Origin: a virus
Lineage: Duplodnaviria; Caudoviricetes
DNA length: 64,000 nt
IMG/VR virus record: IMGVR_UViG_3300021431_004524
Location: 1-64,000 of that record
Direction: 5' to 3' (one strand)
The stretch's first letter is position 1. The number at the start of each line of letters is the position of its first letter. Both the position numbers and the translations under genes were made by a program. The notes beneath the pieces were generated by a model. It was not told the origin of the DNA. It searched no databases and worked only from the letters and a program-made list of their open reading frames with translations. This document shows positions 54,122 through 58,021 of this stretch, piece by piece.

Positions 54122-54210
54122 ATCTTTAAAAACGTTCTTAAATTATATATAATAAATATGTGTGAAAATTAAAATTTCTGTAATTATAATATATAAAATG
54201 GATAAAGATT

Positions 54211-55197
54211 ATGGGTGATTTAGAAATATATGAAATGAGTGATGCTTGTCTGGAAGATTATTGTTATAGTTTAGATAAACTTGATGAAACTATTTGTCAT
54301 GGTATTAATAATTTAATTTATGAAGAAAAGGGTGTTAATGAAACTGTAAGATATAACTGTTTTATTTTATTTAATCAAATATTAGAGCATGCAAAAAATA
54401 CTGAACGTGTAAAAATCGAAAATTTTTACGGTGTTTTTAAAAGAAAAGGCAGTTTTAGATTTAAAATGGATATTTCTCCCAATGAAATTATAGATATAAA
54501 AGTACCAAAAGAAAAAATATTAATTTCATATACTTTTTATAATTTCAAAGATAAACAATGTAAGGATATATTTGATAAGAATGACCATAATCACACATAT
54601 GGATGTGAATGTAATTGCAATGGCATGGGTTATCTTAATATAATTGTTCTTAATTTTTATATGATAAGTGGCCATGCAGACATTTCGAAATGGGCTGATT
54701 CTATTCAGCATGGATTAAGTCATGATTTTGAAATAACGAATCGGGGAAAACCATATATTAATGATTTAAATAAAATAGGTTTGAATCTAATGAGTTCAAA
54801 CGATATATGTGTGAAGAGTATAGGATATATACTTTATGCATCTGATAAAACTGAGATAAGAGCATATGCAAATGGCTTATATGCTTATTTATCAAGTAAA
54901 AATATTATTATGCCGAAATATACTAATTTGCGACATTCTGATTTTTTTAAAATATTAAAGGAACTTAATAATTCGCTTGCTTTTATAAAGGGTAATAAGA
55001 ATAATAAAGAATTGTTAGAAAAAATAAATTTATATTTAGAAAAGTATCATATTAAATATGATAAATTAATAGAAATTGGTGAAAATACGATTAAAAAATG
55101 GAATAAGGAGGCAATGAGAACAATCAACAAATATACTAAGGATGCACAAATTAAATTTGATTATTGGACAGATGCCCCATTACCAAGATTTATTTAA
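54211..55197 (+). CDS. hypothetical protein, degenerate zincin-like motif
   Basis: IQHGLSH...TEIRAY; very AT-rich. Confidence 0.6.
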   Translation: MGDLEIYEMSDACLEDYCYSLDKLDETICHGINNLIYEEKGVNETVRYNCFILFNQILEHAKNTERVKIENFYGVFKRKGSFRFKMDISPNEIIDIKVPKEKILISYTFYNFKDKQCKDIFDKNDHNHTYGCECNCNGMGYLNIIVLNFYMISGHADISKWADSIQHGLSHDFEITNRGKPYINDLNKIGLNLMSSNDICVKSIGYILYASDKTEIRAYANGLYAYLSSKNIIMPKYTNLRHSDFFKILKELNNSLAFIKGNKNNKELLEKINLYLEKYHIKYDKLIEIGENTIKKWNKEAMRTINKYTKDAQIKFDYWTDAPLPRFI

Positions 55198-55206
55198 AGA
55201 AAAAAT

Positions 55207-55787
55207 ATGAAGCAACCAGTAAAAGGTGGAAAGAAAATAAAAAGAAAAGTAAATACTGTTAAAAACGGTAGTCACAATCCATTTCGTAAGAGGAATCATA
55301 CGCAGGAATACGGAACTTCAAAATTGGAGTATGACTTTGCACGTGATTTCTTGGATAAATTGGGATTAAAATACGTGTATCAATATGAGGCAAAAGATAT
55401 TAAGAGGTTTTTTGATTTTGCAGTTACTGCTGAAGAGAATTATCCTTACAAATATGTTTTAAAAGAGGGTATTAACAGCATTGACCAAGATGCACAATTA
55501 TTTATTCCTAATTTCATCATTGAGGTGGATGGTGACTACTGGTGACAAAATGTCATTCAAATCCATTGTTGGTTAAGGAAAACGAACTTAATCCTATGCA
55601 GAAACATAACAAGTTTGTCGATAAATTAAAGGATGAGTGGTGTGGTATGCATTGTATTCCTTTATTGAGAATATGGGAGAATGATATAAGGAAAAAACCA
55701 AAGAAAGTCATTGACATGATTTGTGAGTATTCATTGGCTGCTAGGAAAAGACAAATGATAAAGGAGAATAGGAAAAGGCCACATTAA
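55207..55787 (+). CDS. DUF559/Vsr-like nuclease interrupted by an 11-nt stop/hairpin insertion (ORFs 55207..55545 + 55542..55787)
   Basis: TSKLE..F...FDF...IIEVDGDYW | HSNP...NKFVDKLKDEW...LLRIWENDI; removing 55543-55553 restores one ORF. Confidence 0.75.
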
Positions 55788-56482: not shown

Positions 56483-58021
56483 ATGGATGTAATTAACAGT
56501 AATGGCAAGATGACACCGGAGGAATTTGCCGAAAGAAGAAAGAGGGAATTGGCTATACTTAAGGCTTCAAATCAGATGTTGGAAGATGCCAAGAATAATC
56601 TTATTTCAATGAATGAGGAAGACATTGACATTATGAAATATGCCGGCACACAGGAATTGTCAAAGAGTGATAAGATAAAGGCTATTGAAGAGGCTCAGAA
56701 AGAGAATATAGCAGCCGGTGAAGCATATTACGGTGCTTCTGAAAAGGAAATTAATGACGCAACTTATTTTGAGCCGGATAAGGCTGCTGTAAAGGCTTAT
56801 GAAAGAAGACTAAAAATGAAAGGTATTACTGATGAACAGTTACATAATAAAAAGTTGAATACTGCTTCTTATTCAAATGAAGACACGCCCGATGATGGCC
56901 TTATTGAAGATTATACCGGAAGTGGTAAGAAGAAAACAACAAGACGTAAGAGAGTAACTAAGAGGACAAAAGAAGAAGAAACAAGTCAATATGAAGAGAA
57001 AGCACCGGAGATTACGGTATCTCAGAAAGAAACAATCGAGGTGGCGAAACCGGAACCGGTTGATGTGAAGAAGGAGACCGAAATTGTTACAAATGAGAAT
57101 ATTGAAGATGACTCTTATGATTTTGATGTTAATAGCATTCCAGATTATGTACAATATGATGTTATTCCTTTACCTTCAAACGGACAATGTTATAAGCACA
57201 AGAAAGGCAGAGTACCGGTTGCTTATCTGACCGGTTCTGACGAGAATATTATCGCCTCTCCAAACATGTATCGTGATGGTAAACTGATTGACATTATTTT
57301 GAAGAGAAAAATACTTGATAAGACCATTAACGTTGATGAATTAGTAGCCGGTGATAGAGATGCAATTACCCTTTGGTTAAGGGCAACGGCATACGGTCCG
57401 GAGTTCCCAATTACTGTGACAAATCCAAATAACGGTAAACAATATGATACTTCTGTCGATTTGTCGAAGTTCAAATTCAATGATTTTAATTTGAAAGGTG
57501 ATGAAAATGGTTTGTTTGAATATAATGTCGGTAAAAATGTAATTAAATTTAAGTTTTTGACTAAGAATGATGAAAACGAACTTAGGGAGAAACTGATGAA
57601 TCAGATTTCAGACAGTGAGAAAATAAGTATACTCCGTGATGTAATGTCGATTAAGGAGTCTCTTGCAAGGGTTGATATTGATGATGAGGAACGTAAGAAC
57701 CTTAATGAAGATATTGAAGAAATTAGGGAAGTAATCGGTGAATCGGTCAATGAGAATGAAGATGCTGATGTCTATCCTAAGACTGTTACCGAACAGATGA
57801 TTATGCATACTGTTTCAATTAATGGTAATACTGATGAGGAATACATTAGGAACTTCATTGAGAATATGAGAGCCGGTGATGCAAGAAAATATCGTGACTA
57901 TATTGTTAATAATCGTCCGGGTGTTGATTTCAATATAAAGATTGACGTACCTAAGAGCGATGGAGGTGGCTCTTTCAATACGTTTCTTAGAATCGACGAT
58001 TCTATTTTCATCACCTACTAA
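56483..58021 (+). CDS. baseplate hub / tail assembly chaperone (gp26-like) with long charged N-terminal extension
   Basis: DVIPLPSNGQCY...YLTGSDENII.SPN...GDRDAITLWLRATAYG; just upstream of tape measure. Confidence 0.7.
   Translation: MDVINSNGKMTPEEFAERRKRELAILKASNQMLEDAKNNLISMNEEDIDIMKYAGTQELSKSDKIKAIEEAQKENIAAGEAYYGASEKEINDATYFEPDKAAVKAYERRLKMKGITDEQLHNKKLNTASYSNEDTPDDGLIEDYTGSGKKKTTRRKRVTKRTKEEETSQYEEKAPEITVSQKETIEVAKPEPVDVKKETEIVTNENIEDDSYDFDVNSIPDYVQYDVIPLPSNGQCYKHKKGRVPVAYLTGSDENIIASPNMYRDGKLIDIILKRKILDKTINVDELVAGDRDAITLWLRATAYGPEFPITVTNPNNGKQYDTSVDLSKFKFNDFNLKGDENGLFEYNVGKNVIKFKFLTKNDENELREKLMNQISDSEKISILRDVMSIKESLARVDIDDEERKNLNEDIEEIREVIGESVNENEDADVYPKTVTEQMIMHTVSINGNTDEEYIRNFIENMRAGDARKYRDYIVNNRPGVDFNIKIDVPKSDGGGSFNTFLRIDDSIFITY

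Follow-up and report, generated by a model that had tools for sequence, protein, structure and literature searches.

An 11-nt segment that interrupts a putative nuclease gene of a T4-like phage is probably a miniature, mobile coding gap, which translating ribosomes would skip by a hop of peptidyl-tRNA-Trp triggered by a stop codon. The gene lies in a 64,000-nt stretch of DNA (hereafter referred to as the window) belonging to a 235,653-bp phage record with a GC content of 34.6%, and a baseplate hub gene is found at window position 56483. The N-terminal open reading frame (55207–55545, frame 1) terminates with the sequence ...FIIEVDGDYW. Reading in frame 0 after the gap gives CAT TCA AAT CCA, which encodes HSNPLLVKENELNPMQKHNKF... 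and stays open until the stop codon at 55785–55787 (Table 1). Deletion of the gap in silico joined EVDGDYW to HSNP within a 189-aa open reading frame that resembles the intact homologues. The closest of these, P0001, is 95% identical across the N-terminal half and has EVDGDYFHSNP at the junction, while two other intact loci read DGDYW|HSNP as well. A preliminary description of this DNA had stated that an 11-nt insert splits an active-site motif, that its removal restores EVDGDYW-HSNP and that both halves are intact; the open reading frames and the intact homologues bear out all three statements.

Table 1. Features of the interrupted nuclease gene, in window coordinates.
Feature	Positions	Strand	Remarks
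N-terminal coding segment, Vsr/EDxHD-like nuclease	55207–55542	+	112 codons, ends E-V-D-G-D-Y-W; from the list of open reading frames
Recombination patch (gap and about 60 nt upstream)	55483–55553	+	from a different gap-bearing lineage
Proposed take-off codon TGG (Trp112)	55540–55542	+	found before the stop in all gap-bearing lineages
Predicted hairpin GGUGACA / AAA / UGUCAUU	55541–55557	+	55541–55547 paired with 55551–55557; minimum-energy fold prediction
Coding gap TGACAAAATGT, 11 nt	55543–55553	+	begins with TGA (55543–55545); absent from 92 unique intact junctions
Proposed landing triplet TGT	55551–55553	+	last 3 nt of the 11-nt gap
C-terminal coding segment	55554–55787	+	77 codons and TAA; first codon is that of the invariant catalytic-motif His

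The interrupted allele is not an error of one genome. The exact protein of the N-terminal half is encoded on five contigs (from NCBI, JGI, Logan and ENA), its 90% cluster contains 112-aa and 189-aa forms together, and each of several other gap types was found again in two or three independent assemblies. Since the same alleles occur in independent assemblies and collections, the gaps are real, and a sequencing or assembly artefact, which the preliminary description had listed among its alternatives, has a negligible chance of explaining them. The phage genome itself holds no paralogue of the nuclease gene, and a search of the phage record collection with the DNA and the protein of the locus gave 0 matches.

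By fold matches of a structural model, the interrupted gene appears to encode a nuclease of the Vsr/EDxHD/DUF559 type. The N-terminal half has 611 metagenome homologues, the majority of which are uninterrupted proteins of about 189 aa. An AlphaFold2 model of P0001 (pLDDT 85) has a predicted Vsr-like restriction-endonuclease fold; it aligned with Vsr (Z 11.2, rmsd 4.0, 123 residues aligned), with I-Bth0305I (Z 10.9, rmsd 2.6, 97 of 98 residues) and with the DUF559 protein NGO0050 (Z 10.0, rmsd 2.0, 92 of 94 residues), and Foldseek matched it to 3r3p with a probability of 0.98. Neither of the two halves nor P0001 had a Pfam match above threshold (DUF559 was scored at E 0.12 and 12.6 bits, below the cut-off of 20.6), and searches of PHROGs and Pfam with the two halves yielded nothing useful. 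Thus, the family seems to be a distant branch that has not been filed in Pfam. It has the fold and the catalytic Asp...His arrangement in common with Vsr and the I-Bth0305I/EDxHD homing endonucleases (PMC3239194; PDB 3R3P, 1CW0). The phage family lacks NUMOD domains and is not intron-encoded; the likeness concerns only the protein that hosts the gap.

Across 43 intact homologues, E106, D108 and H113 do not vary and D135 hardly does. In Vsr and I-Bth0305I, the corresponding Asp is a metal ligand in catalysis and the His is the supposed general base (PMC3239194). Judging from the fold match, the Asp and His of the phage family are likely to be equivalent to D51 and H69 of Vsr. The gap thus sits in the four-residue loop between the presumed catalytic residues Asp108 and His113, directly 5′ of the His codon. 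The spacing between Asp and His is exactly four residues in 95 of 95 intact genes, with no sense insertion at this place.

We retrieved the DNA of homologues truncated at the Trp residue and compared their junctions. Many homologues, with identities of 50–86%, end exactly at ...DG[DGS]YW, and every retrieved carrier has the same layout: TGG, a stop codon, a few bases, CAY and an open remainder of the reading frame. The 106 unique junctions compared comprised 92 intact and 14 split ones, beyond which further split loci were added. Altogether, there are at least 15 distinct gaps of 7, 8, 9, 10, 11, 13 or 15 nt, all of them at the Trp|His codon boundary (Table 2). Even on backbones that are nearly identical, as in L175 and the window, the gap can differ in length (10 and 11 nt, respectively). 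Three more distant representatives of 50%-identity clusters, compared at the protein level (P0164, P0178 and P0181), end with ...DGDYW or ...DGGFW at the same Trp. Conservation of the insert in homologues had been named by the preliminary description as a way to check its proposal; the comparison places 15 variants at one and the same boundary, and the gap is not unique to this genome.

Table 2. Gap variants at the Trp|His boundary.
Locus	Gap sequence	Length (nt)	Remarks
Window	TGACAAAATGT	11	
L019	TGACAAAATGG	11	
L175	TGACAAATGC	10	
P0132	TGATAAAATGT	11	inferred from the protein
L177	TGACAACATGG	11	
L021, L176	TGAAATCATGT	11	
L023	TGAAATCATGG	11	
L020	TGAAAAATACTGT	13	
L027	TGAACATGC	9	
L025	TGAATATGA	9	
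L161	TGAGTGA	7	
L033, L138	TAGATTGG	8	
L071	TAAAATGG	8	
L013	TAAACAATAC	10	
L031, L149	TGACAAAACTAAAGG	15	

The split genes are easily lost in annotation, as indicated by the inconsistent calls of the C-terminal half, which gene callers render as 63, 72, 73, 81 or 85 aa with differing starts (clusters of P0121 and P0146). Gap-bearing genes end up split or discarded by annotation pipelines. Some members of the P0121 and P0146 clusters carry the JGI name ‘very-short-patch-repair endonuclease’.

The two ends of the gap are constrained. Its first triplet is a stop codon in all variants (TGA in 12, TAA in two and TAG in one), and the codon 5′ of the stop is TGG in 14 of 14 unique split junctions as well as in those added later. 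At the same codon, intact genes have TAT (30), TTT (25), TGG (15), TAC (12) or TTC (10); when phylogenetically independent pairs are compared, TGG is associated with the gap by 5:0, a test of low power (p about 0.06). At the other end, the triplet before the His codon is TGN in 13 of 15 variants, where 4% would be expected from the composition of the gaps (binomial, 2e-16, or 3e-6 with counting by length class). The pre-His triplets across the variants are TGG (6), TGT (4), TGC (2), TGA (2), AGG (1) and TAC (1). Thus, a match to the take-off codon is enriched at the landing site, often as a near-cognate only; TGT of the window matches TGG at two of three positions, and the poor matches are TAC in L013 and AGG in L031. 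The gap interior varies freely in length and sequence, resulting in frame changes of 0, +1 and +2, and three natural variants (9, 9 and 15 nt) are in frame.

The rest of the gene is kept intact. Both halves of the open reading frame are open in every carrier, and no break was found elsewhere in the gene among about 110 unique genes extracted. Within a stretch of at most 15 nt, the length of the gap has changed six or more times, and the 570 flanking coding bases have 0 frame-breaking indels in any carrier. Selection on the C-terminal half looks normal in the carriers: the median omega was 0.229 both in split–split and in intact–intact pairs, the codon differences among the window, L175 and L176 were 38 synonymous and four non-synonymous, and L031 and L149, which have the same 15-nt gap, differed in this half by nine synonymous and four non-synonymous codons. 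Between the latter two, dS was 0.32 in the C-terminal half and 0.08 in the N-terminal half. The constraints at the gap ends, together with the free interior and the absence of sense insertions, would be expected of a hop from UGG to UGN and not of a dead gene. The end constraints could partly stem from common ancestry.

In the mechanism that we consider probable, a ribosome with UGG (Trp112) in the P site would meet UGA in the A site, the peptidyl-tRNA-Trp would un-pair from UGG, and the mRNA would slide by 11 nt. The tRNA would then re-pair with the near-cognate UGU that abuts the His codon on its 5′ side, and decoding would restart at CAU. The predicted products are a 189-aa enzyme (...DGDYW-HSNP...) and a 112-aa termination product, and the tryptic peptide spanning the predicted junction would be EGINSIDQDAQLFIPNFIIEVDGDYWHSNPLLVK. 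Since the gaps change the frame by 0, +1 and +2, no one direction of frameshifting can serve all variants, whereas a hop can. The weak point of the hop model is that TGA is itself a UGN triplet, located at +3, and the model does not account for its being passed over. We infer from the compared sequences the hop itself, its efficiency and its role, which may be to limit the dose of the nuclease or to provide shielding from a homing nuclease; the throttling of a toxic nuclease that the preliminary description put forward is likewise conjectural.

Outside the window (G000:C1:134639-144082), the phage genome has genes for a tmRNA with the tag GETTYALAA and for 19 tRNAs, among them Trp(cca), His(gtg) and Cys(gca). 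Its tRNA-Trp has a normal anticodon loop of 7 nt according to ARAGORN. The D stem of this tRNA has a U-A pair in the ARAGORN drawing, where E. coli tRNA-Trp has U-G; we take this site to be that of the Hirsh UGA suppressor, which makes it a possible lead for the handling of UGA.

The preliminary description had already suggested a miniature hop from TGG over the stop to a near-matching triplet, with a hairpin as its signal. The hop is favoured by the 15 variants in three frames, all with TGG and a stop and 13 with TGN before His, but the hairpin did not stand as a signal. The stem TGACA-AAA-TGTCA exists, and the predicted hairpin pairs the take-off and stop codons with the landing and resume codons; its folding energy was not significant against shuffled sequences (z -0.98 for 44 nt and z -0.11 for 101 nt), a comparable stem is missing from most other gap variants, and covariation was not established. 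Significant local structure, in segments of about 100 nt, was found only in L013 (1786–1885; -31.1 kcal/mol, z -3.6) and L031 (1819–1923; -23.4 kcal/mol, z -3.1), the two variants with a poor landing match. In L013, the stem brings together the take-off and stop codons and the landing and His codons. With two cases, this pattern is no more than suggestive.

Lateral mobility of the gap was not anticipated in the preliminary description. Mapped onto a tree of 110 unique genes, the presence and absence of the gap require 11 or more state changes, eight of which are forced by well-supported branches, and split and intact sisters can be near-identical (the window with L001 and L002, L021 with L005, and L161 with L171). 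The 60 nt 5′ of the window gap are 97% identical to gap-bearing L019. When the window is compared with intact L001, the nearest 30 nt 5′ of the gap are only 70% identical, as against 87–97% otherwise. Similarly, L033 and L138 have 100% identity over the 30 nt 5′ of their common gap, compared with 50–80% elsewhere, and L176 combines a gap and flank of the L021 type with a backbone like that of the window; the patches of L175 and L176 are shorter than that of the window. These patchwork identities indicate that the gap is transferred together with a conversion tract of 20–60 nt on its 5′ side. Thus, tiny inserts can be mobile in phage populations. Recombination can also refresh the flanks, which blurs how long any gene has carried its gap, and, because the gap moves in this way, the intact halves and the low omega could in part reflect recent acquisition rather than selection.

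Directly upstream of the window nuclease is a 1,015-nt insert (54192–55206), which is absent from the closest intact relatives L001 and L002, in which 90 nt separate the anchor gene from the nuclease start. The insert contains an open reading frame of 328 aa (54211–55197) that had no Pfam or PHROG match and has homologues upstream of the nuclease not only in L175 and L020, which bear the gap, but also in L098, which is intact. L021 has a different upstream insert of about 650 nt. In L019, L023, L025 and L031, the gap occurs without an insert, the anchor gene being 82–113 nt upstream as in intact loci. As the gap occurs without the insert and the insert without the gap, there is no obligatory endonuclease cassette. 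A DUF723 gene is the direct upstream neighbour in 8 of 15 split loci compared with 26 of 95 intact ones, a weak association that is uncorrected for phylogeny. This upstream DUF723/DUF4379 gene, present in loci including L013, L027, L033 and L071, is a putative zinc-ribbon nuclease gene.

Much of the evidence for mobility would also fit a spreading null allele, in which a selfish or neutral patch moves by gene conversion between co-infecting phages, only the 112-aa fragment is made, and the halves look intact because every acquisition is recent. The scatter of the gap on the tree, the near-identity of split and intact sisters, the conversion tracts of 20–60 nt and the uneven dS of the two halves in L031 and L149 are all in keeping with such an allele, and nuclease genes of this kind are often dispensable. 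We nevertheless judge it rather improbable: a stop after TGG in 15 of 15 variants and TGN before His in 13 of 15, with an interior of varying length, would be left unexplained, as would the absence of a second lesion from any carrier and the spread of a knock-out patch without drive; also, omega in the carriers equals that in intact genes. The recent pseudogene entertained by the preliminary description is rejected on account of the recurring gaps and of the two halves that are open in all carriers.

A two-chain enzyme, for which ribosomes would terminate at TGA and re-initiate at the GTG that overlaps it (55542; GTGA coupling) so that chains of 112 and 81 aa assemble into an active nuclease, is unlikely. 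The overlap of GTG with the stop, correctly noted in the preliminary description, fits this reading in the window, in 10 of 15 lineages a potential start (ATG, GTG or TTG) precedes the His codon by a few codons, and gene callers annotate 81-aa products. The reading fails, however, in five lineages (L025, L027, L031, L071 and L161), which lack ATG, GTG and TTG from the nearest upstream stop to the His codon; L025 and L161 even have a stop directly before His in the His frame. The putative leaders of a second chain (VTKC, VIKC, MKSC, MTTW, MVDW and MVTTGDKC) are not conserved, and the cut would fall within the four-residue catalytic loop from Asp108 to His113.

We regard as less probable still a mixture of conventional recoding events, with -1 or +1 frameshifting or read-through according to gap length and two to five extra residues in the loop. 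Although TGA read-through would be possible for the in-frame 9-nt gaps and the phage has a tRNA-Trp of its own, three different mechanisms would be required, two of the in-frame variants hold two stops, and read-through would be useless for the out-of-frame gaps. No slippery heptamer or RF2-like motif is visible around TAC TGG TGA, and the loop length is invariant across the intact genes.

Four other candidates were tried and rejected. With an alternative code in which TGA is read as Trp, the frame enters nonsense and further stops, and the other open reading frames of the window are open under table 11. A tandem duplication of TGGTGAC, which is indeed repeated at 55530 and 55540 as the preliminary description said, does not serve as the origin: removal of 10 nt leaves the frame broken, and gaps other than those of the TGAC type with GGT GAC codons lack the repeat. 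The ATG found inside many gaps (A-TGN) would put re-initiated translation one base off the His frame, and gaps of 7–8 nt are too short for the known splicing motifs of a micro-intron.

Natural bypassing is known from very few systems, namely T4 gene 60 and its homologues, the byps of yeast mitochondria and the phiHau3 terminase candidate. Byps are structured elements of 27–55 nt. The mitochondria of Magnusiomyces capitatus contain many of these short mobile inserts, which ribosomes skip (cited in PMC5009743 and PMC10732093); byps are mitochondrial, whereas the nuclease gaps are in phages. T4 gene 60 has a 50-nt bypass from GGA to GGA with a take-off stem-loop, a nascent-peptide signal and a MobA cassette (bioRxiv 10.1101/2022.08.31.505936; PMC5462505), and closely paired genomes with and without its insert are known (bioRxiv 10.1101/2022.08.31.505936), a pattern similar to that of the nuclease gap. 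The nuclease gap resembles it in having a proposed take-off codon followed by a stop, a proposed landing triplet 5′ of the resume codon, mobility and a location in a conserved region. However, the gene 60 gap makes up the 3′ terminus of an HNH cassette, whereas the nuclease gap has 7–15 nt, would lead from UGG to UGN and comes without a conserved hairpin or an obligatory cassette.

In the large terminase gene of Streptomyces phage phiHau3, gaps of 10 nt (7 nt in a prophage) follow a rare UUA codon, and one site, in a UAA version, was shown by junction-peptide mass spectrometry to be bypassed in E. coli (PMC10732093). There, too, short gaps (7–10 nt) interrupt a conserved motif in a phage gene; homologues lack them, and the protein is restored upon their removal. 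The phiHau3 trigger is a rare sense codon with a developmentally limited tRNA, whereas that of the nuclease gaps would be a stop after Trp; unlike phiHau3, the nuclease gaps have many variants in all frames, move laterally and reside in a nuclease gene. In synthetic stop-hops in E. coli, peptidyl-tRNA jumps over a neighbouring stop and lands on a matching codon a few nt farther downstream (Weiss et al. 1987, reviewed in PMC5009743). Those sites were engineered, whereas the nuclease gaps are natural and include three in-frame variants; a recoding review of 2016 knew of no natural in-frame stop hop (PMC5009743). Among the papers searched, none was found to describe a gap in this nuclease family.

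What the nuclease gaps appear to have in common with the known systems is the logic of take-off, stop, landing and resumption together with mobility; their trigger of a stop after Trp, the size of 7–15 nt, the near-cognate landing, the in-frame members and the nuclease as host gene set them apart. As a more far-reaching and tentative possibility, which we think improbable at present, the gaps may be autonomous, laterally mobile ‘micro-bypass’ elements of 7–15 nt, the shortest natural gaps decoded by stop hops, in-frame ones included, which would be kept because they alter the site of a homing nuclease (possibly that of their own enzyme) with the wild-type protein still being made. If so, they would represent a minimal, cassette-free counterpart of T4 gene 60/MobA. 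The locus constitutes a natural mutational series, with a constant take-off codon and His resume codon (CAT or CAC), fifteen gaps, four classes of landing triplets, three frames and near-isogenic sisters without a gap; the rules of short-range hopping are therefore directly testable with simple reporters.

Two further features of the flanks were observed. An 8-bp stem (UCAUCAUU / GAUGGUGA) is predicted at window positions 55514–55535, just 5′ of the take-off codon; the 75 nt 5′ of take-off were slightly more structured in carriers, with a median z of -0.95 versus 0.1 in intact genes, although inconsistently across loci. On the 3′ side of the nuclease gene, the intact sisters carry about 450–500 extra bases (L001:2114-2560 and L002:2118-2616) that are missing at window position ~55831, a second indel polymorphism flanking this gene.
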